Shown piece after piece: positions 10,439 to 64,000 of a stretch of 64,000 bases of DNA. The stretch covers positions 363,338 through 427,337 of the forward strand of contig OZ007020.1 of assembly GCA_963931495.1 (NCBI GenBank). Direction: 5' to 3'. A program made the translations under genes and the position numbers. This stretch comes from an uncultured Alphaproteobacteria bacterium. Lineage in GTDB: Bacteria; Pseudomonadota; Alphaproteobacteria; Rs-D84. The notes beneath the pieces were generated by a model. It made no database searches, had not been told where the DNA came from, and worked only from the letters and a program-made list of their open reading frames with translations. Position 1 is the first letter of the stretch, and each line of letters starts with the position of its first letter.

Positions 10439-11182
10439 ATGAAAAAAATAATTTCTTTTGCTGTGTTGGCTGGTTTGTCTGTGTCTGCGTATGCGGCACC
10501 GATGTATCCAACGTATGTATCCAGTAATTCGTATGTTGATGCGAATTACAGCGGTGACAGTCTGTACAGATATGCCGACCGTGAAAAAACAAATTGGTAT
10601 GCCACAATTCGTGCCGAATTGGCTTTGTTGAATTGGACGAATACGTATTCAATGCAAGAAACTGCACCAACAGATGCGGGATTTGGCGGGGATAAATATT
10701 CACTGGAACCGGTGTTTGGTGGCAACTTGGCGGTTGGTCATAAGTTTACAGATGCATGGCGTGCGGAACTGGAAGCCGGCTATATCGGATATTTTTCTGA
10801 TACTGATCCGATTTCACACTTTACAATGCAGATTCCGTATTTAATGGTGAATGGATTTTATGATTTTCAAAATGGATTTTATCTGGGGGCGGGCGTTGGT
10901 GTGTCGCTGGTTATAACAGAAATTGATACGTTGATGTCTACGCCGGAAAATCGCTATAACACCGGGGCATCGCCAATGGGGGCGGTTATGTTGGGTTATG
11001 CGCTGGAACTGGGTAATGATTTTGTTCTGGATGTGCGGTACAGATTGTCTGGGATGATGGGGGACCAGCATCGTTTCTATCCGACAGAACTGTTTGATGG
11101 CAGTGCAACGTTCTGGGTGCAAAATGAAATTGGATTCATACTGGATAATTCACTGTCGGTCGGGTTGCGATATGAATTTTAG
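10439..11182 (+). CDS. Small outer-membrane beta-barrel protein (porin/OmpW-like paralog family)
   Basis: Signal peptide MKKIISFAVLAGLSVSAYA. Alternating hydrophobic beta-strand pattern. C-terminal ...GLRYEF with a terminal Phe. Confidence 0.5.
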   Translation: MKKIISFAVLAGLSVSAYAAPMYPTYVSSNSYVDANYSGDSLYRYADREKTNWYATIRAELALLNWTNTYSMQETAPTDAGFGGDKYSLEPVFGGNLAVGHKFTDAWRAELEAGYIGYFSDTDPISHFTMQIPYLMVNGFYDFQNGFYLGAGVGVSLVITEIDTLMSTPENRYNTGASPMGAVMLGYALELGNDFVLDVRYRLSGMMGDQHRFYPTELFDGSATFWVQNEIGFILDNSLSVGLRYEF

Positions 11183-11244: not shown

Positions 11245-13062
11245 ATGAAAAACACGTTTGGCATTTCAACATTAGCAATCACATTGGCCATAGGGGCATT
11301 TGTGTGTGACGCAAATGCGGCGGCAACTGTTCGGGCATTGGGGGGCAGTGGAACGTATTCCAGTGCATCCAGTGCATCGTCTGGTTCGTCGGCCACAACA
11401 CGGGGCAGTTCGGTCAGTGTTGCACCGGTGGCCAGTTCTGGGTCGTCGGGCGTCGCGGCAACCGGTGGTGGAACAACCACGGGGCGGGTTTCAACAATGC
11501 CACGTCTGTCGTTGGGCAGTTATTTGACCGGTGCAATTAATTCCAGTGGCGGAATGCTGCGGCCGGTGGTGTCGGGTGATGATTCTTCGTCGTCTGGTTC
11601 GGGGTCTGGGTCAACAGGTGGTAATATGACCCCCGGGGCATCCGCGGAAATTATCAAGGAAATTGACCGGTTGCATTCAGATGTGGAAAGTTTGCGCGCA
11701 TCAGATGAAAGTCTGTTGGAAAGCATGGATGCCAAGCAGGATGTTTTGGTTCCGACCGAAGATGGGTATGTTGTTATTGACAATAATGAAATCTTTTTGG
11801 ACGTTGAAAATTTAAGTAATGCATTAGAAGAACTGGTTGATGATGGTCGTGAAGTAGAAATTGATTATGATGGCGAATATGTTGTTTGGCGTTATGTCGG
11901 TGATGCAGTGTGGAATAATTTGATATCCAAGGAAGATATTACCGGACCCCAAGGACCCGAAGGACCCCAAGGTCCCCAGGGCGAGGCCGCCAATCTGGAC
12001 GCATATTCAACAACAGAACAGATGAATTTTGCAATTGCAAATGCAATTGGTGCGCTGGCTGAAATATACGCAACGAAAACAGAATTAACAAAGTATCCGA
12101 CGTCTGATACTGTGGCGGCAACATACGCGACCAAGGCGGAATTGGCGAAATATCCAACCGCGGATACGGTTGTTGCAACCTATGCAACCAAGGAAGAGTT
12201 AAAGAACTATCCCACGTCTGAAACAGTATCGGCAACATATGCAACAAAAACAGAGTTGGCGACCAAGGCAACGACCGAGGCACTGGAACGTGGATTGGCG
12301 GCCAAGGCAGATGCCGCGGCATTGGATAACTATGTTAAAACAGGAACACTGACCCAGTATTATTATGACAAGGCCGGGGTTGATAATCGTATATCTGAAA
12401 TTGTGTCGGGGGATTTAAGTACTGCGTTGACACAATATGTTAAAACAGAAGATATGAATACGGCATTGGCGGGCAAGGTTGATAACGAAGATATGGTCAA
12501 CTATGCAACGGTTGCAACGGTTGATACCAAGGCGGATAAAACAGCGGTGGAATCGTTGGCACTGACGGTTGCAGATGTTGATACAGTCGCAACATCGGCG
12601 GCCCAGGGTGTTGATACGGTGTCTGATTTGGTGGATGAGGTTATTGGGCATGTAAAACAGAATAAAACGGCAATTGGAAATATGCAGACTGTCGTAGGGG
12701 CGGGGGAATTGTCAACCGAAGCGCGAACAATCGTGGGGGCCATCAATGAAATAACAGGTCGGGTGGACGATTTACCAACACAGAGCAATTTCCAAGAAGT
12801 TAATCAAGCTATCACCAGCATAGAAAATGCATTGGAAACCAAGGTTGAAACGACCGAATTAAATGAAATCGCCTTTACCGGCCAGATTACAAATGAAAAT
12901 GTGGCGGAAAATGCGGGGATTTCACGTATTAAATTATCATCGGATGTTCAAGATTCTTTGGATCGTGCCGATGAAGCGGTGGTTGTTGATGGTATCGGTT
13001 CAAATCGTATCTTGGGAACAGACGACGCCGGTCAAGAAACGTGGTACGAAATTGTTATGTAA
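11245..13062 (+). CDS. Secreted phage-tail-fibre-like / collagen-like repeat protein (array member 1, 605 aa)
   Basis: Signal peptide. Ser/Gly-rich linker. Collagen triplets GPQGPEGPQGPQGE. Four tandem YATK(T/A/E)EL(T/A/K)KYPT(S/A)DTV repeats. Ala-rich coiled-coil segments. Confidence 0.5.
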   Translation: MKNTFGISTLAITLAIGAFVCDANAAATVRALGGSGTYSSASSASSGSSATTRGSSVSVAPVASSGSSGVAATGGGTTTGRVSTMPRLSLGSYLTGAINSSGGMLRPVVSGDDSSSSGSGSGSTGGNMTPGASAEIIKEIDRLHSDVESLRASDESLLESMDAKQDVLVPTEDGYVVIDNNEIFLDVENLSNALEELVDDGREVEIDYDGEYVVWRYVGDAVWNNLISKEDITGPQGPEGPQGPQGEAANLDAYSTTEQMNFAIANAIGALAEIYATKTELTKYPTSDTVAATYATKAELAKYPTADTVVATYATKEELKNYPTSETVSATYATKTELATKATTEALERGLAAKADAAALDNYVKTGTLTQYYYDKAGVDNRISEIVSGDLSTALTQYVKTEDMNTALAGKVDNEDMVNYATVATVDTKADKTAVESLALTVADVDTVATSAAQGVDTVSDLVDEVIGHVKQNKTAIGNMQTVVGAGELSTEARTIVGAINEITGRVDDLPTQSNFQEVNQAITSIENALETKVETTELNEIAFTGQITNENVAENAGISRIKLSSDVQDSLDRADEAVVVDGIGSNRILGTDDAGQETWYEIVM

Positions 13063-13083
13063 CAGAGCAGAATGGGAACGTAA

Positions 13084-14247
13084 ATGAAAAATAAAAAAAT
13101 TGTTTTTTGTGGATTTGCGGCGACATTACTGATGGCGGGTACCGCGAATGCGGCGGTGAAAATTGCCAGCCAAGAATACGTTGATCGTGTTGATAATGTT
13201 ATCGCGGAAAGCGTTGATTCTGTTCAGACCCAGGTTACAGAATTGGATACCGTTGTTAATGACCCGGATACAGGGCTGGTTAGTGGGGTTGCGGATTTAC
13301 AATCCCAGATTTCGGGCAAGCAAGATGTTGCGAATTTAACCCAGACCATAAATGATGAATCCCAGGAAACACAATATCCATCGGCGGCGGCGGTTAATAC
13401 GGCAATCAAAGATGCAACAACAGGACTGGTTGGCAGCGAAGATTTAGAAGATTTGGCCGGTGATGTAAATGCGCTGAACACAAATGTTATCCAGTTGCAA
13501 TTTGATGTAAAGTCAAAACAGGATTCTTTGAATGATAATCAAATGAATGCGGTGAATTCTGGGATTACTGCGGACAAGGTTACACAGTATGATGAATATG
13601 CAACCCAGATTGCGGCCAAGCCAGACGCAGCATCGTTGGCAACAGTGGCAACAACAGGATCATATAATGATTTGAAAGATGCGCCGGCACCGATTGTCGT
13701 TGATGCGACGTTAAGTGCAGAAAGTACAAATCCGGTTCAAAATAAAGTTATTAATGCCGCATTGGCAACCAAGGCCAGTACCCAGGATGTTTCTGATATC
13801 GCCGAAGATGTGACGATATTGGAATATCTGGTTAATAACGAAGATACAGGCTTGTCGGCCCAGGTTGCAGATATTGCTACCGCGGTTGAAACAGCGCAAT
13901 CGGGTGTTGATTCGTTGACACAAACAGTCGGTAATGCCGAAGGTGGACTGGTCAAAGATGTTACAGATTTGCAAGGCGATATGTCTGGCAAGCAAGATGT
14001 GGCAAGTCGTGAAAATACAATCACTGATGATGATACAAAATATCCATCATCTGGGGCGGTGTACGATGCGTTGGCAACCAAGGCTGATGTTGATGCAACG
14101 TATACCAAAGAAGAAACAGACAACCAAATCACTACATTGGCAATACCACGGCCAAGTGATGAATGTATGGCATCGTCAGGGGTGTGTGTGTTGTCGGTAA
14201 CCAGTTCTGGTGACTTTGCATGGGTTAATGTGGCGTATCCAGATTAA
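13084..14247 (+). CDS. Secreted phage-tail-fibre-like coiled-coil protein (array member 2, 387 aa)
   Basis: Signal peptide followed by IASQEYVDRVD. Motifs QYPSAAAVNTAI, ATTGSYNDLKDAPAP and KYPSSGAVYDALATKAD, which are typical of tail-fibre repeats. C-terminal Cys motif ECMASSGVCVL...WVNVAYPD. Confidence 0.5.
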   Translation: MKNKKIVFCGFAATLLMAGTANAAVKIASQEYVDRVDNVIAESVDSVQTQVTELDTVVNDPDTGLVSGVADLQSQISGKQDVANLTQTINDESQETQYPSAAAVNTAIKDATTGLVGSEDLEDLAGDVNALNTNVIQLQFDVKSKQDSLNDNQMNAVNSGITADKVTQYDEYATQIAAKPDAASLATVATTGSYNDLKDAPAPIVVDATLSAESTNPVQNKVINAALATKASTQDVSDIAEDVTILEYLVNNEDTGLSAQVADIATAVETAQSGVDSLTQTVGNAEGGLVKDVTDLQGDMSGKQDVASRENTITDDDTKYPSSGAVYDALATKADVDATYTKEETDNQITTLAIPRPSDECMASSGVCVLSVTSSGDFAWVNVAYPD

Positions 14248-14305
14248 TTTGGCTGGGGCAAAACAAAGAGATATAAAGAGAAAAAAATAAAACAGGAGAA
14301 AACAA

Positions 14306-15580
14306 ATGAAAAAATTAACCGCAGGTATATTTGCAACCTTATTAGCTGTTGTGTCGGTTGGTGCCGCACGCGCTGATATCGCGTCCAGCCAATATGTTGA
14401 TGACAAGGTTGATACCGTTGAAACATCTGTAACAACATTGTCTGGACGGGTTGATACCGCCGAAGAGGGAATTGAAACATTGGGAACAAAATTGGATGCC
14501 AAGTTGGATTCTGCAACAGCGGCCAGCACGTATGCAACCCAATCAGCATTAACAAGTGGTTTGGCGAACAAGCAAGATAAAGCACTGATTACATCAGCAG
14601 AATATGCGGAACATATATCCAGTGAAACAGGTTATCCATCTGTGGCGGCAGTAGAAGCGGCAATTGATGCGGCAACCGATGGGGTGGTTACCGATGTGTC
14701 GGACAAGGTTGATATTGCCCAGGGCGCTGGTGCCGCGAACAAGGCTGTTATTACTGGGGCGGATGGTAATATTACAACTGGTGAAGTTACCAGCGGCATG
14801 ATTGCAGATGGTACAATCGTTAATGCAGATATTTCCGCATCGGCGGCCATTGAGGCATCAAAAATTACAGGTCTGGGTGGTTTGGCCAGTCAAGATACTG
14901 TTGGTGCCGGTGATATTGAAGCGGGCGCAATCGTTAATGCAGATATTTCCGCGTCGGCAGCCATTGATCAATCAAAAATTAATGGATTAGAAGCATCGTT
15001 GGGTGCAAAAGAAAATGTTGCTAATCGTGTTACAACGACAACATGGAATGCAAACAAGAACAGTGATGAAATGTATCCGACAGCGGGTGCGGTCAATGCC
15101 GCAATTACAACCGCAACGTCTGGTATTACAACAGATATATCTGAATTGACGACCCAGGTTGAAGAAAATACCCAGGGTATCGCTGATAACGCAAGTGATA
15201 TATCAACCAATACATCGGCGATTGGTACTTTGACCAGTTTGACAACCACAGAACAAGGAAACTTGGTTGGTGCGATTAATGAAGTGGCCGGTGAGGTTGC
15301 GGATGTTTCGGGTGATATTGCATTAAAACAGAATATCACAGATAACACATTCACAACAGCGGCGAAGACGGTACCGGGTGCTGTTAATGAATTGAAAACC
15401 GCGGTTGATGCGGCCGCAGATGCGGCAGAAGCAGCCCAGACGGCGGCCGATGCCAAGATCCCAATGCCAAGTGGCGAATGCAGCAACCCAACAAACAAAT
15501 GCGTATTAGTATCAAATGGTACAAGTTCGTTTGAATGGGAAGTTGTTGCCCGTGGTGTGTCACCGGATGTTGGTGAATAA
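14306..15580 (+). CDS. Secreted phage-tail-fibre-like coiled-coil protein (array member 3, 424 aa)
   Basis: Signal peptide followed by DIASSQYVDDKVD. Motifs GYPSVAAVEAAIDAATDG and MYPTAGAVNAAITTATSG. Duplicated block GTIVNADISASAAIEASKITGLGG / GAIVNADISASAAIDQSKINGLEA. C-terminus GECSNPTNKCVLVSNGTSSFEWEVV. Confidence 0.5.
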   Translation: MKKLTAGIFATLLAVVSVGAARADIASSQYVDDKVDTVETSVTTLSGRVDTAEEGIETLGTKLDAKLDSATAASTYATQSALTSGLANKQDKALITSAEYAEHISSETGYPSVAAVEAAIDAATDGVVTDVSDKVDIAQGAGAANKAVITGADGNITTGEVTSGMIADGTIVNADISASAAIEASKITGLGGLASQDTVGAGDIEAGAIVNADISASAAIDQSKINGLEASLGAKENVANRVTTTTWNANKNSDEMYPTAGAVNAAITTATSGITTDISELTTQVEENTQGIADNASDISTNTSAIGTLTSLTTTEQGNLVGAINEVAGEVADVSGDIALKQNITDNTFTTAAKTVPGAVNELKTAVDAAADAAEAAQTAADAKIPMPSGECSNPTNKCVLVSNGTSSFEWEVVARGVSPDVGE

Positions 15581-15596
15581 TTTTACCGATAAGATT

Positions 15597-15628
15597 CTGT
15601 GTGTGATGCGTGGTGCGTCACACACAGA
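15597..15628. promoter_or_regulatory. Near-perfect 11-13 bp inverted repeat (TCTGTGTGTGA-N-TCACACACAGA) in the spacer between array genes 3 and 4
   Basis: tctgtgtgtgatgcgtggtgcgtcacacacaga. No T-run follows, so it is more likely an operator or RNA-processing hairpin than a terminator. Confidence 0.35.
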
Positions 15629-15698
15629 AGGATAAAAATGGGTATAAGTGGTGCGCAACGTAACGGTAATGTGAACATTTAGTTTTGTTTATGTAAAT

Positions 15699-16736
15699 GT
15701 GATGCTGAAAGTTAAAAATATTTTTGCTGTTTCTGTTATCGCGATAATGACAGTTGGCGGGGCGTTGGCTGATATTGCATCTGTAACGTATGTTGATGAT
15801 AAGTTCAGCACCGTTGAAACCGATGTTACGGGAAATGTCACAGGGGACGGGAATGTTGTAACCACAATTTCAGCCAGTGGTAACACGGTTACCGCGACCA
15901 AGGGAATAACCGCCGAAGAAATTAAAAACAAGGTTGAAAGCATTCGTGATTCTGGGACGGCAACAAACACGGCGTATCCATCAGAACGTGCGGTTGCAAT
16001 TGCGTTGGCGGTCAAGGCAGATTCCAGCACTGTTTCCGCAATGCAAAGTGATATAGATGCCGCCGGTGCCGCCGCCGCCGAGGCCAAAGAAGCGGCCAGC
16101 AGTGCAGAAAGTGCAGCAACAGAGGCATCAGAAGCCGCCGCCGCCGCCACCGCAGCGGTCGCGAACAAGGTTACGGCGAATGCCGCAATCACGGGTGGCA
16201 CAGCAACAAAAATTACATTTGATGCCAAAGGATTGGTTACGGGTGGGGCCAATTTGACCGCTGATGATATTCCAACGGTTCCAAGTACAAAAGTTTCGGG
16301 GCTGTCAACAGTCGCAACGTCGGGGTCGTATGATGATTTGACGGACAAGCCGTCTATCCCAGCGGCATATACTTTGCCGGCGGCGACATCGGCGGCGTTG
16401 GGCGGTGTTAAATCGGGCGGTGATATTTCTGTTTCCGCAGATGGTATTGTGACAGTCAGCAATGCTGCATCGGCGGACAAGGCGACAACGGCCACAACCG
16501 CAACGAATGCAACCAATGCAACAAATGCGACGAATGATGCCGGCGGTAATAATATTGCGAGTACGTATGCAACCAAGTCGCAAATAACGGCATTGAACAG
16601 TTCATCCACAGGTACGGGTGCCGTTGTGACCGCTGTGTCACAATCAGGTGGCAAGGTTTCAGTGACCAAGGGCAATGTTCAAATTCCTGTGGGCAGTGCG
16701 ACCGGAACATCGTATGCCACGATATGGGTTGAATAG
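15699..16736 (+). CDS. Secreted Ala-rich coiled-coil protein (array member 4, 345 aa)
   Basis: Signal peptide followed by DIASVTYVDDKFS. Motifs AYPSERAVAIALAVKAD and VATSGSYDDLTDKPSIPAAYTLPAATSAALGGVK, a classic tail-fibre motif. Also TATTATNATNATNATND. Confidence 0.5.
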   Translation: MMLKVKNIFAVSVIAIMTVGGALADIASVTYVDDKFSTVETDVTGNVTGDGNVVTTISASGNTVTATKGITAEEIKNKVESIRDSGTATNTAYPSERAVAIALAVKADSSTVSAMQSDIDAAGAAAAEAKEAASSAESAATEASEAAAAATAAVANKVTANAAITGGTATKITFDAKGLVTGGANLTADDIPTVPSTKVSGLSTVATSGSYDDLTDKPSIPAAYTLPAATSAALGGVKSGGDISVSADGIVTVSNAASADKATTATTATNATNATNATNDAGGNNIASTYATKSQITALNSSSTGTGAVVTAVSQSGGKVSVTKGNVQIPVGSATGTSYATIWVE

Positions 16737-16772
16737 CCTGTGCTGTGTGTGGACCAAGGTTTACATAATAAC

Positions 16773-16800
16773 AAAAAAGCGCCGTTTGGCGTTTTTTTTG
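16773..16800 (+). terminator. Rho-independent terminator closing the fibre-protein array
   Basis: aaaaaagcgccgtttggcgtttttttt. Confidence 0.6.
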
Positions 16801-16812
16801 TTTCGGACTGGG

Positions 16813-16832
16813 TACCCCAGGTGGCAGGTCCG
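16813..16832 (+). repeat. Left copy of a ~20-bp direct repeat (TACCCCAGGTGGCrGGGTCCG) flanking a ~450-bp region with no convincing ORF
   Basis: taccccaggtggcaggtccg here, against taccccaggtggcggggtccg at 17285..17305. Confidence 0.5.
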
Positions 16833-17284
16833 ATGAATGCGGATAATCCAAAATTTTTGTTCTGGGATATTGGTATGAATTTAATGTTGGGGTTGCATTA
16901 TGTCTGTCACGGCCGGTATCATGTACGTTTAGCGGCCGCATGGCGTCGTAAAACATTCAACGATGGCATGTTTAGTTTTTTCAAGAAGTGCGCAGAAATA
17001 ATTTGTAAATGTTACCCACGGATAAAAGTATTAGAAATAAAACACAATAGAGATTATATATATATTTTGATATCGCCAGCGCCGTCATTGTCTGGGGGGG
17101 GTAACGCGATTAGCACGATAAAAACAAATACCAGCAGCCAGATGAACAATATATTTTAGGTATGGACAGTAATTGGCCTGAGGAATGTTTTTTATCAATG
17201 GCATAGATGAAATGATGGTCAAAAAATACATTGAACAACAGTGATAAAAAGATTTGGGACGACATGTGGTCAATACCCCAGGTG

Positions 17285-17305
17285 GCGGGGTCCGTGTGAT
17301 TATTT
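17285..17305 (+). repeat. Right copy of the direct repeat
   Basis: taccccaggtggcggggtccg. Confidence 0.5.
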
Positions 17306-17345
17306 ATTAGCACAACTGATACGGGTAAAAAAATCGGGGACATGT
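17305..17345 (-). terminator. Rho-independent terminator for the minus-strand gene 17423..18298
   Basis: Minus-strand reading: aaatcggggcaacatgtccccgattttttt. Confidence 0.5.
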
Positions 17346-17422
17346 TGCCCCGATTTATAACATGTGTTGGGGATGTTAATGTTTATTAATCATTGCTGAT
17401 AATATGCATTTTTATCACACGC

Positions 17423-18298
17423 TCAACTGCCGGTGGTATCACTGCCGGTGAATTTATTTGGTATAACATAGCATTCTGTTATAGAAACAGTGCCAGGGGT
17501 TGCAGAACCGCCAACACCGATAGAGCCGTCGTTTATTTCGCCCGGGCCGGCGGTCGTTTGGGTACCAGATGAATGCGATGGGCATGGGGTGCAATATGAT
17601 ACTATGCTGCCGGCGAAATTTGCATTAGGTACCCCGTAAAATCCCTTGGGGCATCGCGTTTGTTTATTCATGTACGTCATGCATCTGTTGCCACTGCATG
17701 CTTTCTTTGTGCGGACCTGGACCGCGTTTGAACCACTGTATGCCATTTCCCATGCTGTTGGAACGCATGTTGATTCATCGCATGTGCCACCAGTGGTGCC
17801 ACCACCACCAGTATTGCTGGCCAAAGAATCACTCATACATTTATAATAGGTTACATTACTGCATCCCAAAATAGTGTGTTTTACGCGTGTGTATCCAGAT
17901 TTACATCCGCTGGCGGATTTAATATAGTATTGAATACCATCTGCATCAAAACATATGTTTGTGGTACCTGTGGCCCCAGGATCGCCCATCACAGATGCCG
18001 TTGAACCAAAGTCTATGAATTCCGTGCGTTCATATATATTGGTGCATCCCGCAGACAGGCATTGAGCATATCCACCGCCGCCGCCACCACCACCACCGGA
18101 ATCGCCACAGCGACGACAACATGCGGTGTTTACAATGTCAAGGCATGTCATGCATCCACTGATGCATTCGGATACGTTATCCCAATCTAAGTATGATTCA
18201 GGAATGTTGGCACTGAATGCAGGCGTATTGAAACACAGGCAACATAACACAGAAAACACCCCGCCATGCCAAATGGCGGCATTTGATTTTATATACAT
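17423..18298 (-). CDS. Secreted cysteine-rich protein with ephrin-receptor/TNFR-like repeats and a poly-Gly tract
   Basis: Signal peptide MYIKSNAAIWHGGVFSVLCCLCFNTPAFSA. GGGGGGGGGG run. Motifs CTPCPSHSSGT, CPKGFYG and CKSGYTRV. The start is taken at an internal Met; the ORF track gives 18343. Confidence 0.5.
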   Translation of the reverse strand: MYIKSNAAIWHGGVFSVLCCLCFNTPAFSANIPESYLDWDNVSECISGCMTCLDIVNTACCRRCGDSGGGGGGGGGYAQCLSAGCTNIYERTEFIDFGSTASVMGDPGATGTTNICFDADGIQYYIKSASGCKSGYTRVKHTILGCSNVTYYKCMSDSLASNTGGGGTTGGTCDESTCVPTAWEMAYSGSNAVQVRTKKACSGNRCMTYMNKQTRCPKGFYGVPNANFAGSIVSYCTPCPSHSSGTQTTAGPGEINDGSIGVGGSATPGTVSITECYVIPNKFTGSDTTGS

Positions 18299-18396
18299 AT
18301 TTTTGTCTCCCACTTTTGTTGTTGTGAATGCCGAATTTGTCATTCACAACATTTGCATTTATTATATAAAATTTTGCATGTGGGTTCAATCGCAAA

Positions 18397-22770: not shown

Positions 22771-23769
22771 ATGGCACATCAATTCTTTTTTAATCCGTTT
22801 ATATTGGATAACTTGCCGACACCAAGTGCGGGATTTGATGTGGTCCAGGATATATCTGAACCGCGTCTGCGTATGTATATCACCAGTCGCGGGATAAAAA
22901 CATTCTTTGTGCGTAAACGTGTACATGGGCGGGACAAGCGTATAATAATTGGAAATTATCCGGATATTGATGTTGAAACAGCACGTGGAATGGTGCCATC
23001 TGTGTTGGCGCGCGCAATGGAAAAACCACGCCGTCGCAATAAAAAAATTACAATGCGCAAATTTCTGGATATATATTTGACGAACCGAATTCGCAGAAAC
23101 AGTTATTCGCGCGAAAAATTGGAACGCGCAATAAGACGGCATCTGTCACCACTGTTTGATATGCCATTGAATGAAATTTCAGATGCTGATATTGCCAATG
23201 TTATCATATGTATCCATGGCCCGGCCATCGCAGCCCGTATGCAGGATTTGTTACAAAGTGTTTACAAGTATGCAATTGATAATGGGTATGCCAATGAAAA
23301 TCCAGTTGCGAAATTACAGAAAATAAAGCCTGTGCGTCGTGTGCGGCCGTTGAATATGGCGGGGTTCCATCGGCTGGTGGGGGCAATAAAACGCGAACCT
23401 GTCCAGAATTTGCGCGCGGCGTTTTTAATGCTGGTGTACGGTTTCGCACCGAAATCACGTGTCTTTGCAATGCAATGGCGTGACCTGGATTTTAACCTTT
23501 ATATGTGGAATGATTGGCCACTGTCTGATGCCGCGGTTGTTTTGTTACAGGATTTGCCGCAAAATGGCCGTTGGGTATTTCCTGGACGGGGACGGGGGCA
23601 TTTGACAGATCCGCGTGTCGCATGGCAGCGGATTGTGACCAAGGCCGGTATCCCAAATGTGACAATGGACGATGTGCATAAATTCTTGATGCGACAATTG
23701 GTCTGGGCCCCAGACAAGGAAGATATTCGTGCAAATATGAATGATGTTTTGGTAAATGCGCTTGGTTGA
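22771..23769 (+). CDS. P4-type (tyrosine recombinase family) integrase homolog, short and probably catalytically degenerate
   Basis: N-terminal arm-binding signature LRMYITSRGIKTFFVRKRVHGRDKRIIIGNYPDIDVETARGM (compare L.L.V.PSG.K.W..RYR..GK....LG.YP..SLA.AR). The C-terminal region lacks an obvious HxLRHT...Y catalytic box. At 332 aa it is shorter than the typical ~400 aa. Confidence 0.5.
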   Translation: MAHQFFFNPFILDNLPTPSAGFDVVQDISEPRLRMYITSRGIKTFFVRKRVHGRDKRIIIGNYPDIDVETARGMVPSVLARAMEKPRRRNKKITMRKFLDIYLTNRIRRNSYSREKLERAIRRHLSPLFDMPLNEISDADIANVIICIHGPAIAARMQDLLQSVYKYAIDNGYANENPVAKLQKIKPVRRVRPLNMAGFHRLVGAIKREPVQNLRAAFLMLVYGFAPKSRVFAMQWRDLDFNLYMWNDWPLSDAAVVLLQDLPQNGRWVFPGRGRGHLTDPRVAWQRIVTKAGIPNVTMDDVHKFLMRQLVWAPDKEDIRANMNDVLVNALG

Positions 23770-53189: not shown

Positions 53190-56066
53190 ATGAAAAAATT
53201 ACTGACCAGTATGATAATTTGCCTGGGCTTTATTGCCGGTGCGGATGCGGCGGTACGCAGCCAGTCGGCAACAACGGTTAATCGTGGGGCGGCGGCAACA
53301 AATACGTCAACGCGTGCAACGGCAACGGCGCGTGCGGCAACCACGGCGCGCAGTGCAACGCAACCACGGGCCACAACGGCGCGCGCCGCCACAACGGGGC
53401 GCACCACGGTCAGTCGTACCAGCGCCGCAACATCATCAACACCAACAGTCGCGGCGCGTGCCGCCACAACACAAAAAGTGTTGAATGCCGGTACCAGTGT
53501 CCAGGCGGCAAATGAAAATATTGTTGTCAGTGCAGATTGTCGCCAAAAGTATTATGGATGCATGGATTCGTTCTGTATGCTGGATAATGACAGTGGTGGG
53601 CGCTGTATTTGCAGTGACAGAAATGCTGAACTGGATGCCATTTTAGACAAAATTCAACAACTGGACCAGCAAAGTTATCAAATGGCAACGTACGGTGTTG
53701 AACGTATAGAAATGGGGGCTGATGCGGATGCGGCAATCGCAAATGCAAATGCTGTGGCACAGTCTATTATTGATTCTGTCCCAGAAGAAGAACCAGCCAA
53801 GCGAGAGTTTAAGTTGGATTTATCATTATGGGATACGTCCAGTTTATATTCAGATAATGTATTTGATGAAACTGTTATGGTTGACCCGATTGAAGGTAAA
53901 GAAGGTGACGCGTTGTACCAGGCATCACACGCCATTTGTGCACAACAAATACCAGAATGTGCCGCGGATATGAATATGCTGCAATTAATGTATGCACAAC
54001 AAATTCGTTCAGATTGCAGCGCGTATGAAAACAGCCTGAAACAGCAACAAAACGCCAGTGCACAAAAATTGGCCGCCGCAGAACAGGCGTTGCGCAGCGC
54101 GGCACTGGAACAATATCGCAGCGCAAACAAGTATGATCTGGGGCAATGTACGGTTGAATTCAAAAATTGTATGATAACAACCGGTGGGTGTGGCGATGAC
54201 TTTGCCGGCTGTGCAACAGTTGCGGCGTTTGATGCAACAAATACACGCGGTCGGGCCAGTGATGCAGAAAAATATTCAATCAAAGGCGCTGTTACAGAAA
54301 TAGAAATTAATGCGTCAACGTACGATATTTTGTTGTCTAAAAAGCCGTTGTGCGAAAGCGTGACTCAGCAATGTGTTAATGTTGCCGATCAAGTTTGGGA
54401 TACTTTTTTGCGTGATATTGCGCCCCAGGTAAAGTCAGCGGAATTAATTGCCGAAGATAATGCGCGCCAAAATTGCATTGGTAACATATCGTCATGTTTT
54501 CAACAGGCGTGTCGTGATACCATGGATCCAAATGATCCAGATGGTTCGTATGATATGTGTCTGACACGGCCAGAAACAATGCTGGACTTATGTACAGTGC
54601 CGTTGAATGCATGTGAAATTTCTACGACGTCGGCGGCCGAAGCAGAGGCGTCGCCAATATGGGAATTTGTGGTTGCGCGTTTGCAATCAATGCGTGTGAA
54701 TTCGTGTACAACCCAGGTTAAAGAATGTCTGCAATCCGAAGACAGATGTGGTTCGGATTATACGCAGTGCATCGGTATGGATTCGTATACGATTATTCGG
54801 ATGTGTCCACAAGAATTGCTGATTGGATGCCAAGGATATGATGGTGGCACCACCAGGGGGGTAAGTTCAGACAGCCAGGATGCGTTCTATTCCAGTTTGG
54901 AAAATATGATTCAAGGTATATTCTTGAATATTGATAACAACATGTTGGCCGAATGCCAGAATGCCGCGAACGAAGCAATGATAAGTGTTTGTGGGGATAC
55001 GGAAAATTGTGACAGTTTGGCGGTTGATGATTCTGTGGGGGCAAATACGTTGGAATACAAGATATGCCAAATAAAATCGGGATCTGGTACAGATATTGAT
55101 TATAACAATTGTGTGACTGATTTGTCCCAGATATCTGATGCGGCGTTGGGACGTGGCGGCGGCAAGGCAGCAAATTATGCAATTGTAATTGATGGTGAAA
55201 TTGATTGGGGCGAAATATCGTTTGATGACGAAGGACGCGTTGTGTTGGGCGATGTTCCAGATACCACAACCACATCAGACACGACCGCCACAGCAAATGC
55301 AAACGCCAGTGTGGCAACTGTTGCAAACGAACCGTTGACAGCGGCGACAACATTGCAACCGGTTATCGCATTAAACAGAACGCCGGTGGTTACAACAACG
55401 GCCCCAGAATTGGCGGCGTCGGAACAAGAACTGAATGCAGAATTGGTGTTGTTACAGAATAATATTAATAATGCGATTAACACAATTGAATCAAATGCCC
55501 AGGTTAATTTCTGTATGACGGGGCGCGAAGTTCAAGGTATCCGCAATGTCGTTGACAGAACGCAAGAAGGGGGCCGGTTCCCAAGTCTGACCAAGCAAAT
55601 GCGTATGCTGATTGCGTCGTCGGCAATCAAGGCGGCAATGGATAACTATTATGAAAGATATGAAGAACTGACGCAAAGAAAGATGCAAGACTATGTCACG
55701 ATGAATGAACGTATTGCGGAAATAAATAATCAAAATACGTTGGATGCACGTCGTGAAGCAGCGCGTATCGCGTGTGTTGAATTGGCCGAAAGTGATGGCG
55801 CATCTGGTGATGATACAGAAAATTCAACCCAGCAAAGCACAACGGTTGCATCATTAAACGGCCAACCGGGTGGACCGTTGGCGGGTGCCAGAGAGACCGC
55901 AAACGATTGGAATTATAAAGAAACAATAACATCAACGTTTGATTGGGAAACATTGGCCTGTACCAGATGCACACGTAAACAAAATTGTTTAGATCCCAAG
56001 GGTGGCAGAAGGTTCTGTAAAGAATGGGAAGATCCAGTTGAAACATGCACAACGGTTGAATTCTGA
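53190..56066 (+). CDS. Large secreted cysteine-rich protein, tandem paralog 1 (958 aa)
   Basis: Signal peptide MKKLLTSMIICLGFIAGADA. Arg/Ala/Thr low-complexity region (ARAATTARSATQPRATTARAATTGRTT...). Multiple Cys-rich modules (CRQKYYGCMDSFCMLDNDSGGRCICSD...). C-terminus ...CKEWEDPVETCTTVEF. Confidence 0.55.
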   Translation: MKKLLTSMIICLGFIAGADAAVRSQSATTVNRGAAATNTSTRATATARAATTARSATQPRATTARAATTGRTTVSRTSAATSSTPTVAARAATTQKVLNAGTSVQAANENIVVSADCRQKYYGCMDSFCMLDNDSGGRCICSDRNAELDAILDKIQQLDQQSYQMATYGVERIEMGADADAAIANANAVAQSIIDSVPEEEPAKREFKLDLSLWDTSSLYSDNVFDETVMVDPIEGKEGDALYQASHAICAQQIPECAADMNMLQLMYAQQIRSDCSAYENSLKQQQNASAQKLAAAEQALRSAALEQYRSANKYDLGQCTVEFKNCMITTGGCGDDFAGCATVAAFDATNTRGRASDAEKYSIKGAVTEIEINASTYDILLSKKPLCESVTQQCVNVADQVWDTFLRDIAPQVKSAELIAEDNARQNCIGNISSCFQQACRDTMDPNDPDGSYDMCLTRPETMLDLCTVPLNACEISTTSAAEAEASPIWEFVVARLQSMRVNSCTTQVKECLQSEDRCGSDYTQCIGMDSYTIIRMCPQELLIGCQGYDGGTTRGVSSDSQDAFYSSLENMIQGIFLNIDNNMLAECQNAANEAMISVCGDTENCDSLAVDDSVGANTLEYKICQIKSGSGTDIDYNNCVTDLSQISDAALGRGGGKAANYAIVIDGEIDWGEISFDDEGRVVLGDVPDTTTTSDTTATANANASVATVANEPLTAATTLQPVIALNRTPVVTTTAPELAASEQELNAELVLLQNNINNAINTIESNAQVNFCMTGREVQGIRNVVDRTQEGGRFPSLTKQMRMLIASSAIKAAMDNYYERYEELTQRKMQDYVTMNERIAEINNQNTLDARREAARIACVELAESDGASGDDTENSTQQSTTVASLNGQPGGPLAGARETANDWNYKETITSTFDWETLACTRCTRKQNCLDPKGGRRFCKEWEDPVETCTTVEF
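54177..54712 (+). repeat. 536-bp tract with a single mismatch to 57002..57537 in the downstream paralog
   Basis: Seen in sequence. The identical antisense ORFs 54376..54612 and 57201..57437 in the ORF track confirm it. Confidence 0.8.
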
Positions 56067-56080
56067 TTGGGACGGGATAA

Positions 56081-58954
56081 ATGAAAAGACTGGTTGCGAT
56101 TTTATTAATGTTGCTGGTTATTCCTGGGGCGGATGCGGCAACACGCGGACAGAGTGCAACGGTGTCGCGTGGAAATGATGCGTCGTCGTCCACTGCAACG
56201 CGGGCGACCGCGGCGCGTGCCGCAACCACAGCACGTAGCGCGGCGGTGCCACAAACGTCGGCACGTGCCGCCACATCGGGGCGCACCACGGTCAGTCGTA
56301 CCAGCGCCGCAACATCATCAACACCAACAGTCGCGGCGCGCGCCGCCACAACACAAAAAGTGTTGAATGCCGGTACCAGTGTCCAGGCGGCAAATGAAAA
56401 TACTGTTATCCAAAATCAGTGCCTTGAAAAATATTATGGTTGTATGGATTCGTTCTGTATGCTGGATAATGAAAATGGCGGTCGCTGTATTTGCAGTGAT
56501 AAGAATGCAGAATATGATCAAATCTTGGCGGATATAGAACGTTTGGACCAGCAGAGTTATCAAATGGCGACTGTTGGGGTGGAAAGTATTGAATCAGGAT
56601 TTGATGCAACAGCGGCGATAAGTTCGGTGGTGAAAGATGACAGTGGTGTTGATTTGTCACTGTGGGACGCATACACCGTGATGGATGATTTGGATTCGGG
56701 TTCTGCAAATCCGTTAAGTGGCAAAGAAGGGGATGCGCTGTTTAATGCATCGCACCAACTATGTGCCCAGCAAATGCCCGAATGTAATGAACAGTTAAGT
56801 ATGCTGTCACTGATGTATCGCCAGCAAATTCGTTCCGATTGCACGGCGTATGAAAACAGTTTGAATCAACAAAAACAAGCCAGCCAACAAAAATTAGCCG
56901 CGGCCCAAACGGCGTTACGCCAGGCGTCATATGAACAACTGCAAGCGGCGAATAAGTACGACTTGGGTCAATGTACGGTTGAATTCAAAAACTGTATGAT
57001 AACAACCGGTGGGTGTGGCGATGACTTTGCCGGGTGTGCAACAGTTGCGGCGTTTGATGCAACAAATACACGCGGTCGGGCCAGTGATGCAGAAAAATAT
57101 TCAATCAAAGGCGCTGTTACAGAAATAGAAATTAATGCGTCAACGTACGATATTTTGTTGTCTAAAAAGCCGTTGTGCGAAAGCGTGACTCAGCAATGTG
57201 TTAATGTTGCCGATCAAGTTTGGGATACTTTTTTGCGTGATATTGCGCCCCAGGTAAAGTCAGCGGAATTAATTGCCGAAGATAATGCGCGCCAAAATTG
57301 CATTGGTAACATATCGTCATGTTTTCAACAGGCGTGTCGTGATACCATGGATCCAAATGATCCAGATGGTTCGTATGATATGTGTCTGACACGGCCAGAA
57401 ACAATGCTGGACTTATGTACAGTGCCGTTGAATGCATGTGAAATTTCTACGACGTCGGCGGCCGAAGCAGAGGCGTCGCCAATATGGGAATTTGTGGTTG
57501 CGCGTTTGCAATCAATGCGTGTGAATTCGTGTACAACGCAATTCAAAGAATGTTTGCAATCCGAAGACAGATGTGGTTCGGATTATACACAGTGCGTTGG
57601 ACTGGATACAGATACAATCGTGCGGATGTGCCCGTATGACGCGTTGCCCGGATGCCAGCAGGTTTATGGCAGTAATGAAATTCGCGATGATGCCGTATAT
57701 GACGAATTATATGAATTCGCCCAGGGAATATTCTTGGGCATAGACAACAATATGTTGGAATATTGCCAGTCTGCGTTGGATGAAGCGGTCATAGAAGTTT
57801 GCGGTTCAACAGATTCCTGTGACCAGTACATGTTAAATCAAGATGTTGGTACGCGTTCATTGGATTACAAAATCTGTGATATCCAGGTTATTGATGGTAC
57901 GGATATTGCGTATTCAAATTGTCGGACAACGGCATCGCAAATAACAGATGTTGAATTGGGACGCAATGCAACCGGACAAATTTCACCGTTGGGTGGCGTT
58001 ATTACAGGTACAATTTATTGGGACAGTGTTGATGTTGACAGCAATGGCAACATTACCCCGGTTGATGAATATTTCGTAAATGCAGATTTGACAGATGCAT
58101 CAGATTCAGAAAAAGAAATGGTGGCGTTGGAATTGGGGGCGTTACAGACCAATATAGATATGGTGTTTGGTATGATTGAATCTGACCCGACCGTACAATT
58201 CTGTATGAGTGGCCGTGAAGTTCAGGGTATTAAACCGTATTCTGGGGAAACAAAACCACGGTTCCCAGAATTAACCAAACAGGTACGTATGCAGATTGCA
58301 ACATCGGCACTGAATGCCGCGCGGGATAATTATTACCAGCGATATGATGAATTAAATGAACAAATGAGCAAAGATAATATTGAAATCGCCGAACGTATTG
58401 CCGCGGTCAGTGGTGAAAATGCAAAAGATGTTCGTCGTGAAGCCGCACGCCAGGCATGTGTGAACTTGGCAGATATGTCTGGTATGCCAAAGTCAGAGAC
58501 ACCAAAATCACTGGTTGGAACAATTATTGCCGCCGCGGTTATCGCGACATCGGCGGTTCTGATTACAGTGTTCAGTGCAGGGATTGGTGGGTTGGTCGGG
58601 CTGGCAGCAACAGTTACAGCCAAAAGCGCCATTGTCGCGGCGGCACCAATAGTATATGTGGCCGCCGGGTCAGCCGGACTGGGGGCGGTCAGTGGATGGA
58701 TCCAAGGGGCCGCAACGGCGGATTATTCTGGTGCCCAGGTTACAAACGAAGTCAAGGATTTAACAGGGTATTTTGAAAATAAGCAATGGAATTACGAAGA
58801 AACAATTACAACAGAATTCAATATGGATACTCTGGTTTGTCACAAGTGTGTAAAATCACGTCAATGTGCGAAAATAAAAACACCATTGTTTGGCAGCAAG
58901 TCTTGCAAGCAATGGGAAGAACCAATTGAGGTTTGTTCAGATATTGAGTTTTAA
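56081..58954 (+). CDS. Large secreted cysteine-rich protein, tandem paralog 2 (957 aa), with an additional C-proximal hydrophobic/TM region
   Basis: Signal peptide MKRLVAILLMLLVIPGADA. The same architecture as paralog 1. An extra segment LVGTIIAAAVIATSAVLITVFSAGIGGLVGLAATV...AAGSAGLGAVSGWIQGAATADY. C-terminus CKQWEEPIEVCSDIEF. Confidence 0.55.
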   Translation: MKRLVAILLMLLVIPGADAATRGQSATVSRGNDASSSTATRATAARAATTARSAAVPQTSARAATSGRTTVSRTSAATSSTPTVAARAATTQKVLNAGTSVQAANENTVIQNQCLEKYYGCMDSFCMLDNENGGRCICSDKNAEYDQILADIERLDQQSYQMATVGVESIESGFDATAAISSVVKDDSGVDLSLWDAYTVMDDLDSGSANPLSGKEGDALFNASHQLCAQQMPECNEQLSMLSLMYRQQIRSDCTAYENSLNQQKQASQQKLAAAQTALRQASYEQLQAANKYDLGQCTVEFKNCMITTGGCGDDFAGCATVAAFDATNTRGRASDAEKYSIKGAVTEIEINASTYDILLSKKPLCESVTQQCVNVADQVWDTFLRDIAPQVKSAELIAEDNARQNCIGNISSCFQQACRDTMDPNDPDGSYDMCLTRPETMLDLCTVPLNACEISTTSAAEAEASPIWEFVVARLQSMRVNSCTTQFKECLQSEDRCGSDYTQCVGLDTDTIVRMCPYDALPGCQQVYGSNEIRDDAVYDELYEFAQGIFLGIDNNMLEYCQSALDEAVIEVCGSTDSCDQYMLNQDVGTRSLDYKICDIQVIDGTDIAYSNCRTTASQITDVELGRNATGQISPLGGVITGTIYWDSVDVDSNGNITPVDEYFVNADLTDASDSEKEMVALELGALQTNIDMVFGMIESDPTVQFCMSGREVQGIKPYSGETKPRFPELTKQVRMQIATSALNAARDNYYQRYDELNEQMSKDNIEIAERIAAVSGENAKDVRREAARQACVNLADMSGMPKSETPKSLVGTIIAAAVIATSAVLITVFSAGIGGLVGLAATVTAKSAIVAAAPIVYVAAGSAGLGAVSGWIQGAATADYSGAQVTNEVKDLTGYFENKQWNYEETITTEFNMDTLVCHKCVKSRQCAKIKTPLFGSKSCKQWEEPIEVCSDIEF
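57002..57537 (+). repeat. Second copy of the 536-bp tract (1 mismatch); candidate gene-conversion tract
   Basis: Identical to 54177..54712 except ccggctgtg / ccgggtgtg. Confidence 0.8.
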
Positions 58955-62613: not shown

Positions 62614-64000
62614 TTATACTTGGCAAACTGTGTTACTGTATTGTATTTCAATATTGCGGCAATCTGGTTGGTCACCGATGTCGGGGCATGCCGACGAACC
62701 CGCGCCAATTGATGTGATATTATTTGGATTTAATCCGGATTCTATCAGTACGTCACGCACAGCATCGGCGCGTTGTTGGGACAGTGGTGTATTGATCGCA
62801 TCGTTACCTGTTTTGTCTGTATTTCCAATAACGCTGATGCAATAATTTGCATTTGTGCCGGACGTTTGTTTTACATCTGTGGCGAAATCTTTTATTATTT
62901 TTTCTGCATCGGTGGTCAAGCGACTTTCGTTCACAGCAAACAACTGTGGTGCCGGTATTTGCAGTCTGTCAATTGGTAACGTGGGATTTTTAACGCACTG
63001 TCCGGCCAGATTTATTATATGATTCGGACTGGGGCATGCACATGCCGTTATGTATTCTGGGTTATCTGGTGAATATTGCGGTATAAAACCATTGTCACAT
63101 GTACATGAACAATCAGTTGTATCAAAGCGAATGTTTGCCGCCGTGATATCACATTCGTATTCTTGGCATGTTGCAATTGGCGCAATACACACGTCGTTAT
63201 CCATTTCTGTGGTTCCAGCAGGACATTGGCATGTGTTGTTTACAGAAATCTTGTCGCCTGGACATATGTCACATGTATTCGTATTTTTGTTATATGCAGA
63301 TTTTGTGTCAGAACATACACAATTTGGATATGTTCCGGTTGCATTGGATGGACATTGTGCATCTGCGTCTTGGTCGGGCAAGATTGCAACCGCGTTTTCC
63401 AGTGATTTTAATGGTTCATACTTTGCGATGATGTCATCAGTTAAATTCTGGGGTGATTTTTTGTTTTCATTTATCGCAATATTGCCAATTATACTGGCCA
63501 ATGTACCAACCCCAGCCGTTATTAAACCTGTTTGTAATTGTTCCGATGTCGCAGATTGTTGCGCCGCCCATGCCGCCGCCGCAGGTCCAGTCGGATCAGA
63601 TAACGCCGCCGCCAATGATACATATACACCATCACCGCGACCCAACGATACATTGTCGTATAACCCAGATGTCGCACTGTCTTGTATTATCTCGGATTCT
63701 ATGCCAGGACTTAATCCCAATGCTTCTTTACGCGTCTTTAAGTCTGATGCCAATGTTATATATTCTGTATACAGTGGTAATAACTGGTTCCCCCCAGGTA
63801 ACGTTATGCCCGTTTCACCACCACTGATGTTGCGACCAGAACCATAGTCACACCGGAATGTTGCCAGGTATGCCGTCATATCGCGTGTCGCATCATTTGA
63901 TGCATTCTGTTGCGCCAACGCAGATGCTGTTTGCATTAATCCAATACCTGTTGCACCAATGCCGGCAGCCCCCAGTATCTTGTTCGCTGTTGATTGTTCT
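62614..64000 (-). CDS. Cys-rich-repeat protein with a C-terminal OmpA-like peptidoglycan-binding domain; the 5' end runs off the window
   Basis: C-terminal FAVNESRLTTDAEKIIKDFA...VIGNTDKTGNDAINTPLSQQRADAVRDVLIESG matches the OmpA_C pattern. Upstream Cys modules (CPSNATGTYPNCVCSD..CDICPGD..CQCPAGT). The frame stays open upstream of the Met at 63936 to the window end. Confidence 0.5.
   Translation of the reverse strand, partial: EQSTANKILGAAGIGATGIGLMQTASALAQQNASNDATRDMTAYLATFRCDYGSGRNISGGETGITLPGGNQLLPLYTEYITLASDLKTRKEALGLSPGIESEIIQDSATSGLYDNVSLGRGDGVYVSLAAALSDPTGPAAAAWAAQQSATSEQLQTGLITAGVGTLASIIGNIAINENKKSPQNLTDDIIAKYEPLKSLENAVAILPDQDADAQCPSNATGTYPNCVCSDTKSAYNKNTNTCDICPGDKISVNNTCQCPAGTTEMDNDVCIAPIATCQEYECDITAANIRFDTTDCSCTCDNGFIPQYSPDNPEYITACACPSPNHIINLAGQCVKNPTLPIDRLQIPAPQLFAVNESRLTTDAEKIIKDFATDVKQTSGTNANYCISVIGNTDKTGNDAINTPLSQQRADAVRDVLIESGLNPNNITSIGAGSSACPDIGDQPDCRNIEIQYSNTVCQV

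Follow-up and report, generated by a model that had tools for sequence, protein, structure and literature searches.

The locus analyzed here raises the question why a bacterium with a genome of about 0.96 Mb encodes four consecutive secreted proteins that carry motifs of phage fibres. The genes, named P1 to P4, are located in a stretch of 64,000 nucleotides (GenBank assembly GCA_963931495.1, contig OZ007020.1, positions 363,338 to 427,337), which as a whole is designated the window. The source is Candidatus Enterousia (Alphaproteobacteria, order Rs-D84). Members of this genus are rod-shaped and non-flagellated, possess genomes of about 0.75–1.0 Mb, lack glycolytic steps, the tricarboxylic acid cycle, respiration and most biosynthesis, and are, according to published genome analyses, probably obligate symbionts or parasites; Candidatus Enterousia and Rs-D84 are common across animal and human guts (PMC12306168). 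The best reading of our results is that P1–P4 form a clade-restricted, uncharacterized family of fibres that are encoded by the cell, draw on phage modules and are kept in a fixed operon.

Four consecutive genes encode exported proteins

The following open reading frames (ORFs) constitute the gene cluster:

11245-13062, plus strand: P1, 605 residues
13084-14247, plus strand: P2, 387 residues
14306-15580, plus strand: P3, 424 residues
15702-16736, plus strand: P4, 344 residues (345 residues from the GTG at 15699)
10439-11182, plus strand: putative outer membrane β-barrel protein (OMP) gene, 247 residues with signal peptide, 62 bp upstream of P1

For P4, the ATG at 15702 was favored by gene callers and by us; the ORF list runs to the GTG at 15699. 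The coordinates and the Sec-type signals of P1–P4 were verified in the translations, in agreement with the initial annotation, which had described four consecutive same-strand genes with signal peptides. As read from the sequence, each signal peptide comprises a basic n-region, a hydrophobic core of 12–15 residues and an AxA site, and cleavage is expected between ..CDANA and AATVR in P1, ..GTANA and AVKIAS in P2, ..GAARA and DIAS in P3, and ..GGALA and DIAS in P4. Lipoprotein anchoring of P1–P4 was ruled out, because the cleavage sites lack a lipobox Cys.

The fibre-like motifs listed in the initial annotation were all recovered with regular expressions, a subset in each protein. P1 contains GPQGPEGPQGPQG at residues 234–248; at residues 275–338, YATKxEL occurs four times and (K/N)YPTxxTV three times, with a period of 19 residues. 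P2 contains IASQEYVD (27), YPSAAAVNTA (98), TGSYNDLKDAP (191), YPSSGAVYDA (320) and the pair Cys361/Cys368; P3 contains IASSQYVD (25), YPSVAAVEAA (110), YPTAGAVNAA (257) and Cys392/Cys399; P4 contains IASVTYVD (25), YPSERAVAIA (92) and SGSYDDLTDKP (207), and no Cys.

In P1, the signal peptide is followed by a conserved Ser/Gly-rich N-terminal region (AATVRALGGSGTY.., PRLS.G.YL), a helix and a small β/α domain, and then by the GPQ triplets, the YATKxEL/KYPT repeats, a helical rod and a C-terminal hairpin (..ILGTDDAGQETWYEIVM). In P2, the signal peptide precedes heptad segments and a pair of YPSxxAV modules, and the chain ends in a hairpin domain of the form IPRP..C..C..W. The ends of P3 are the most conserved of the four (signal peptide MKKLTAGIFATLL.. 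and DIASSQYVDD; C-terminus IPMPSGECSNPTNKCVLVSNGTSSFEWEVVARG). In P4, the signal peptide and DIASVTYVDD precede an Ala-rich helix, phage-fibre modules and a conserved C-terminus of its own (..GTGAVVTAVSQSGGKVSVTKGNVQIPVGSATGTSYATIWVE). The IASxxYVD motif is found just after or near the cleavage site of P2–P4; the N-terminal region of P1 is different. A strand-turn-strand motif with a Trp, which the initial annotation did not contain, closes all four proteins. Long coiled coils had been assigned to all four. This holds for P1–P3, where 9.5–20.8% of 28-residue windows show a heptad signal compared to about 0.5% in shuffled sequences (20–40x), and fails for P4, which has no signal above the shuffled controls.

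The window is ordinary chromosome with FtsE/FtsX-like, TolB, LepA, SecY and fatty-acid synthesis genes and one tRNA. Its composition is even along the whole length, and the array shows no anomaly. Exact matches of P2 were found on gut-metagenome contigs, including one of 958,617 bp that is marked circular by its name. The cluster from OMP to P4 occupies about 0.6% of the genome. GC skew is about +0.2 over almost all of the window (1-64000) and most genes are on the plus strand, which is consistent with one leading-strand replichore.

The gene order is conserved in the genus and the site is not a prophage

A pattern scan of GTDB species representatives yielded 39 loci, whose ORFs were scored with hidden Markov models of the family N- and C-termini and with the proteins of the window. 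Nearly all of these loci are titled Candidatus Enterousia or uncultured Alphaproteobacteria/Rickettsiales metagenome-assembled genomes. The expectation that the array occurs in related genomes was borne out across these 39 species-representative loci. The conserved order is DUF218, ftsX and ftsE on the minus strand, OMP and the P1-, P2-, P3- and P4-type genes on the plus strand, and then a VTT-domain gene and lepA. The arrangement OMP-P1-P2-P3-P4 is present in nearly all loci; a few distant or truncated ones contain fewer members, and the loci L030, L037 and L040 of distant species contain only two or three. The orthologues comprise 295–1468 residues for the P1-type, 296–750 for the P2-type, 119–595 for the P3-type and 104–992 for the P4-type.

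Because the order of P1–P4 is the same throughout the loci, the paralogues are old and positionally orthologous. The recent tandem diversification that had been suggested earlier is at odds with the fixed P1-, P2-, P3- and P4-type positions in nearly every species examined. Judged by sequence comparison, P1–P4 are ancient paralogues at fixed positions of a genus-wide operon that appears to be vertically inherited. YPSxxAV, YATKxEL, SGSYxDL, AVTxxKL and other modules are spread over all four positional classes among the species.

Pfam and NCBIfam scans and PDB sequence searches of P1–P4 gave only sub-threshold coiled-coil matches. In a metagenome protein collection, at least 962 P3-type and at least 386 P1-type relatives were detected, with no curated family above threshold; the sole source name among them is 'hypothetical protein [Candidatus Enterousia intestinigallinarum]'. 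None of the 2.9 million IMG/VR contigs scanned carries a relative of the family, and genes for capsid, terminase, portal, tube or baseplate are absent within 10 kb on either side of the array. Together with the conserved ftsEX-lepA site, these results confirm the earlier statement that the array is not a prophage.

P4 and P1 contain modules of phage fibre proteins

Three segments of the array are of interest for a relationship to phage fibres:

11758-11988, plus strand: P1 residues 172–248, a small globular domain followed by five GXY triplets (AlphaFold2 (AF2) model and PHROG match)
12067-12258, plus strand: P1 residues 275–338, tandem 19-residue YATKxEL-(K/N)YPTxxTV repeats (regular expression)
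16149-16595, plus strand: P4 residues 150–298, modules TKITFDAKGLVT..DIP, SKVSGLSTVATSGSYDDLTDKPSIP and YTLPAATSAALGGVKSGGDISVSADG, common to phage head and tail fibre proteins

An exhaustive HMMER search with P4 yielded 2,819 representatives with E<=1e-3, 678 of them with E<=1e-10. Many are long proteins that match in up to 27 separate stretches, all of which lie inside P4 residues 145–300; for the long repeat proteins, the whole-library E values are 1e-22 to 1e-86. Matches of P4 residues 150–298 to repeats of phage head and tail fibre proteins go down to a whole-library E of 1e-41. Six sampled matches carry Phage_head_fibr (6.5e-69), Phage_tail_C (2.4e-12) and PHROG tail-fibre families (to 1e-57), and one of the six has in addition YadA_head (5e-11). 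At the level of residues, the units TKITxDAKGLVT..DIP, SKxSGLSTVATSGSYxDLTxKPxIP and YTLPxATxxxLGGVKxGxxISVxxDG are common to these proteins and P4. With P4 150–260 as a query, short proteins with PF11133, PF12789 or PF24243 were found, and one short module-bearing protein is encoded directly 3' of a portal gene on a 59.7-kb contig. The HMMER matches and the residue alignments thus characterize P4, at the level of sequence, as a chimera with clade-specific ends around phage-fibre modules. On the phage-like contig L050, a reverse transcriptase gene (RVT_1, 16431-17441) follows a few kb downstream of a head-fibre protein with a P4-type module; it could belong to a diversity-generating retroelement acting on phage fibre genes.

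Residues 192–250 of P1 match phrog_19976 (tail-associated) at 4.2e-10. The collagen triplets that had been noted in P1 are present as five GXY triplets at residues 234–248, and at least four such triplets occur in 23/35 P1-type orthologues; a kinship with collagen found no support, as P1 did not match the model of the bacterial collagen-like family (Pfam Collagen, PF01391). The other signals are weaker. P2 matches 'fibritin neck whisker' at 0.0028 and P3 an unnamed PHROG family at 5.6e-7, PHROG tail-fibre, fibritin and minor-tail families appear at 1e-2 to 1e-3, and with a 95-residue P4 module as the query, genes for head fibres of crAss-like phages and for tail fibres of jumbo phages were matched at E 1e-2. 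The phage tail-fibre hallmarks assigned to the array therefore stand as module homology in P4 and P1; they do not extend to the weakly matching P2 and P3 or to whole proteins, for which tblastn with P1 and P4 found nothing at 1e-3. As far as these searches reach, the kinship with phages is real for modules and not for whole proteins, and it is weak for P2 and P3.

Conserved ends enclose an exchangeable middle

The following features of P3 are relevant for its variation:

14769-15518 (750 bp), plus strand: segment that is 95–100% identical in the other species L007 and replaced in the strains L046-L048
14801-14981, plus strand: internal direct repeat (14801-14867 / 14915-14981, 85% identical)
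15458-15553, plus strand: residues 385–416 with IPxP, Cys pair and β-hairpin with invariant Trp (alignments, AF2)

In alignments of the P3 family, the signal peptide and the mature N-terminus with its motif of about 12 residues are nearly invariant, as are the last ~35 residues (IPxPxGECSNPTNKCVLVSNGTxSFEWEVIAR); the middle is a gappy mosaic. The internal repeat encodes (I)VNADISASAAIxxSKIxGL twice. Minimal P3-types of 119–132 residues consist of signal peptide, IASxxYV motif, a short helical stretch, the C-terminal hairpin domain and little else. A disulfide-type Cys pair is present in most P2-type and in about half of the P3-type members. The N-terminus of the P1-type is conserved as ASSVRxLGGxGTY ... 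RGGSVRV ... PRLSIGxYLGG, with invariant residues across 34 orthologues, and its C-termini are mostly of the form xVLGTDxxGxxVWYEIAM, some having the Cys-pair version. The P4-types share their own C-terminus (..GTGAVVTxVSQxxGKVSVTKGNVxIPVGSxxATxYATIWVE). For residues 385–416 of P3, we propose a role as an oligomerization cap. The initial annotation had pointed to the C-terminal tips as the place to look for diversification. The opposite was found: the tips are the most conserved part of P1–P3, and it is the middle that varies, via cassette exchange.

Conspecific contigs are 99.2–100% identical to the window over the whole neighborhood. P3 is identical in L001, a contig otherwise identical to the window. 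The strains L046-L048, whose flanks are 99.2–99.9% identical, possess a P3 allele of 369 residues with matching ends and an unrelated middle. Between L007 and the window, DNA identity is 70–85% for housekeeping genes and 55–65% for P1, P2, P4 and OMP, compared to the 95–100% of the P3 segment. An all-against-all megablast of 40 species loci was screened for inter-species segments of at least 200 bp with at least 95% identity. Of 19 near-identical segments, 18 are located in P1–P4, although no more than about 40% of each locus belongs to these genes; the screen is conservative, as it misses the exchange between window and L007. Pooled within-species ratios of non-synonymous to synonymous polymorphism (pN/pS) are 0–0.04 for ftsE, ftsX, the VTT gene and lepA, about 0.1 for OMP, P1 and P2, 0.47 for P4 and 1.23 for P3 (30 non-synonymous and 8 synonymous changes), where counts are small and the strains compared are non-independent. 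These comparisons of sequences identify P3 as a mosaic hotspot with cassette exchange both within and between species.

As a source of the P3 variation, a diversity-generating retroelement was considered and rejected, since neither a reverse transcriptase nor a template repeat is present near the array in the window. Silent donor cassettes were not seen either: the 64-kb window contains no extra or partial copies of the array.

Predicted structures

The AF2 monomer model of P3, which was based on an alignment of 69 sequences, has a mean predicted local distance difference test score (pLDDT) of 65.7. It contains helices at residues 28–66, 258–311, 314–354 and 357–384, a small hairpin at 146–160 and a C-terminal hairpin (398–403/409–415) with a pLDDT of 84–90. 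Short predicted helices begin exactly at the YPSxxAV modules. The model of P1 is poor (pLDDT 48.6). Residues 22–128 are predicted to be disordered, a small β/α domain at 176–233 (strands 176–228, pLDDT 75–84) lies just before the GPQ triplets, and helices and a C-terminal hairpin come after it. The models and the heptad signal agree with the earlier description of elongated, helix-rich proteins.

A trimeric-fibre, β-helix or collagen fold, for which the initial annotation had proposed structural searches, received no support: Foldseek found no significant match for the monomer models of P1 and P3 in PDB and BFVD. Monomer models are a poor test of intertwined fibres, so that this null result, which formally speaks against a fibre fold, is uninformative. 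The best non-significant matches were the AtaA stalk (E 4.7) and assorted phage fibre proteins. The weak, sub-threshold profile matches in PDB are all oligomeric coiled coils, mostly trimeric ones (P22 gp26 needle, fibritin, trimeric autotransporter adhesin (TAA) fusions, Lpp). The C-terminus (IPxP, hairpin, Trp) looks like the T4 foldon, but a kinship found no support in sequence. The PDB profile search returned no foldon chain and hhalign gave a probability of 0.2%, which leaves an analogy only.

A conserved putative OMP gene precedes the array

The co-oriented OMP gene, which is absent from the initial annotation, opens the conserved cluster; in 37/39 species-representative loci it is located directly 5' of the P1-type gene. 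Its product matches Pfam OMP_b-brl (PF13505) with E 4e-5 and 24.3 bits, below the gathering cut-off of 28.7, and more weakly the Rickettsia Adr adhesin of NCBIfam (0.0087). With a DNA identity of 54–65% to L007, compared to 70–85% for its housekeeping neighbors, it diverges faster than these. On account of the conserved adjacency, the OMP is perhaps an anchor or partner of the fibres.

Interpretation of the array

Sec export, modular proteins of elongated and helix-rich shape, phage modules, extreme length plasticity, an exchanged middle and the OMP gene are best explained by exposed fibres. We therefore assign a probability of roughly 0.55 to the reading that P1–P4 are envelope-anchored, externally exposed and variable fibres under diversifying pressure. 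Their fibrous nature is well supported, their exposed location moderately so. A role as adhesins for partner cells is plausible; it follows solely from the predicted dependence of the organism on other cells. For P1–P4 we infer a trimeric state, crossing of the outer membrane, anchoring, exposure at the surface and adhesin function in the following model.

After Sec export and cleavage of the signal peptide, P1–P4 would assemble, most likely three chains at a time, into elongated rods of α-helical coiled-coil segments, each begun by a helix-capping YPSxxAV or IASxxYVD module, with short β modules of phage head and tail fibre kinds interspersed along them. The C-terminal hairpin domain with its IPxP, disulfide and invariant Trp may set the register of the chains. 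Through the mature N-terminus of P2–P4 and the N-terminal region of P1, the rods would attach to one shared element of the envelope, perhaps the OMP, and would stand out from the cell as a variable fibre coat in contact with partner cells or with the surfaces of a host. Homology arms for the recombinational replacement of the P3 middle and of segments of P1, P2 and P4 could be provided by the conserved 5' and 3' ends of the genes, and such a replacement would alter exposed epitopes or specificities.

Several findings weigh against this interpretation. The Sec signal is the sole evidence for export, and the 64-kb window revealed no secretion system. The conserved adjacency is the sole argument for an anchor role of the OMP, whose family match lies below the gathering cut-off. 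The phage-family matches of P1, P2 and P3 are weak, and the tblastn searches that gave nothing for whole P1 and P4 covered 50,697 phage genomes. The two AF2 monomer models yielded no significant fibre fold, and the pN/pS values suffer from the small counts and related strains mentioned. Finally, the C-terminal end, which in phage fibres is normally the receptor-binding tip, is conserved here.

Rather unlikely in our estimate is a variable protective coat or decoy layer, similar to an S-layer or a fibrillar glycocalyx, that mainly wards off phages, predators or immune factors and does not primarily bind a partner. In that case, the phage-like modules and the exchange of cassettes would be a sign of varying antigens or receptors and not of recognizing a target. 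Such a coat draws on the same evidence for exposure and variation; moreover, four genes in almost every species fit a structural coat, and the variation affects the shaft and not the tip. However, the Pfam and NCBIfam scans revealed no S-layer-type domain, there is no sign of lattice formation, and the modules of phage fibres usually serve for binding or as spacers.

That P1–P4 are never exposed and are structural coiled coils of the periplasm, such as tethers that link the outer membrane to peptidoglycan or spacers that separate the two, acting with ftsEX, tolB and the OmpA-family gene, is improbable. The 3- to 5-fold variation in length (P3-type 119–595 and P1-type 295–1468 residues) is ill-suited to a compartment of fixed width, mosaic allele replacement and inter-species exchange are focused on the array genes, and virion fibres, which act extracellularly, contain these modules too. 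These arguments have to be set against the fact that only a Sec signal is evident, the envelope genes in the neighborhood, the weak profile match to Lpp among the coiled-coil matches, and the purifying selection on P1, P2 and OMP within the species (pN/pS ~0.1).

Distinctly improbable, though it overlaps with the model outlined above, is a single heteromeric structure in which P1 forms the base and P2–P4 share the IASxxYVD docking end. Four positional types occur in fixed order in nearly every species, the mature N-terminus is common to P2–P4 while that of P1 is different and highly conserved, and the C-terminal hairpin is common to P1–P3. Yet the members are of very different lengths, each of which varies independently of the others, and two or three members suffice in the distant L030, L037 and L040. 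A remnant of a prophage, tailocin or gene-transfer agent with surviving fibre genes, to which the module homology and an integrase-like gene 6 kb downstream (22771-23769) might point, is extremely improbable in view of the ftsEX-lepA site that is constant in nearly all 39 species loci, the lack of structural genes within 10 kb, of IMG/VR relatives and of a composition anomaly, and the Sec signal peptides, which are dispensable in a virion fibre.

If P1–P4 are exposed variable fibres, a further step may tentatively be considered, namely that building blocks of phage fibres were turned into a core attachment organelle, which is retargeted by cassette swaps between strains and species via the conserved ends, much as phages retarget their receptor-binding proteins, and sets the range of partners of Rs-D84; the operon would then be a key determinant of partner range for this order. 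Because the operon is conserved in nearly every species, is the focus of inter-species recombination in its neighborhood and has no curated annotation, it stands out as the foremost candidate for an apparatus of contact or surface variation in Enterousia. P1–P4 are also concrete targets for antibodies, fluorescent fibre probes and partner pull-downs.

Other genes in the window

The region 3' of P4 is the least conserved between strains (96–98% identity, with a coverage of only 36% in L046). Just 3' of P4, the minus-strand gene 17423-18343 encodes a secreted Cys-/Gly-rich protein of 306 residues with a run of eleven Gly and no family match. Conspecific strains possess the gene in slightly different lengths, whereas it is absent at the syntenic L007 locus. 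In one conspecific strain (contig L003), a small ORF (13747-14073) with a weak match to a Y1 transposase (IS200-like) is inserted between P4 and this gene.

A homologue of tyrosine integrases (22771-23769, plus strand; phrog_1 1.2e-27; Pfam Arm-DNA-bind, SAM-like and central domains only) is located between four small orphan ORFs after lepA and acyl-carrier/ketoacyl-synthase genes. It is the only phage-like gene near the array. Conspecific strains have it as well, and its surroundings show no evident mobile element.

Further secreted proteins are encoded on the plus strand towards the end of the window. The tandem paralogues 53190-56066 and 56081-58954 are Cys-rich proteins of 958 and 957 residues with signal peptides and no Pfam match, whose central ~915 bp are 89.6% identical. 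Their Ala/Thr/Arg-rich N-termini after the signal peptide (AAVRSQSATT.. and AATRGQSATV..) resemble the corresponding AATVRALGG.. of P1. The gene 60146-62167 encodes a secreted Cys-rich protein of 673 residues without a family match and adjoins the OmpA-family gene 62614-63936 on the minus strand.

Comparison with known systems

Like the TAAs YadA, SadA and AtaA, which are long, modular and coiled-coil-rich surface fibres of Gram-negative bacteria, P1–P4 are predicted to be extended and segmented. Unlike the TAAs, they lack a C-terminal anchor of the YadA type; a separate small OMP gene is present instead. In Pfam and NCBIfam scans of P1–P4, neither the YadA anchor (PF03895) nor head or neck domains were matched, and the C-terminus is a hairpin of about 30 residues. 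Stalk fragments of SadA and AtaA match weakly (E 0.014 by sequence, E 4.7 by fold), none of them significantly.

T4 fibritin is likewise a segmented coiled-coil rod that ends in a hairpin with a conserved Trp after a Pro-rich turn. There is no detectable sequence kinship to its foldon, in contrast to which the hairpin of the array proteins is longer and usually contains a disulfide.

Variable surface proteins with conserved ends and exchangeable middles are known from Anaplasma (Msp2/P44), Mycoplasma (Vsp/Vlp) and Campylobacter fetus (Sap). The array resembles these systems in its conserved signal peptides and termini, its recombinational mosaic center and its occurrence in host-associated bacteria with mostly reduced genomes. 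It differs in that the 64-kb window shows no silent donor cassettes or invertible promoters and that the folds are unrelated; furthermore, all cases of exchange in our data involve different strains or species.

With fibre proteins of phages (Phage_head_fibr PF11133, PTR PF12789, Phage_tail_C PF24243, crAss-like head fibre), the relationship is one of modules. P4 150–298 aligns to their repeated units GLSTVATSGSYxDLTxKPxIP, YTLPxATxxxLGGVKxG and TKxTxDAKGLVT, and the mini-domain of P1 that precedes the collagen-like segment matches, with the GXY triplets, a tail-associated PHROG family. P1–P4 are set apart from phage fibres by Sec signals, clade-specific termini and a core locus, and their scores remain below the Pfam thresholds of PF11133, PF12789 and PF24243.

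The closest functional analogue appears to be the MAT (mosaic adhesive trimer) fibres of Bdellovibrio bacteriovorus (PMC10769870). In both cases the cell encodes elongated, phage-fibre-like proteins whose signal peptide is directly followed by a conserved region and which are chimeras of exchangeable modules, and in both cases the bacterium is dependent on contact with other cells. MAT proteins possess a β-rich N-terminal domain of ~130 residues, β-helical shafts and variable C-terminal tips, 13 of the 21 contain an S74 chaperone-protease, and the 21 paralogues are scattered in the genome (PMC10769870). A comparable N-terminal domain is missing in P3, where a helix is predicted from residue 28, and in P1, where 22–128 are predicted to be disordered; variable tips are likewise missing, and the Pfam scan of P1–P4 gave no match to Peptidase_S74. 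Instead, a conserved N-terminus of about 12 residues leads into a helix in P2–P4, the shafts are mainly predicted to be helical, and one fixed operon combines the genes with an OMP gene. If this reading is correct, Enterousia would be a second, unrelated lineage beside Bdellovibrio in which modular fibres of the phage style are used by the cell, with an organization of its own, in which the ends are conserved, the middle can be exchanged and an OMP gene is dedicated to the array.

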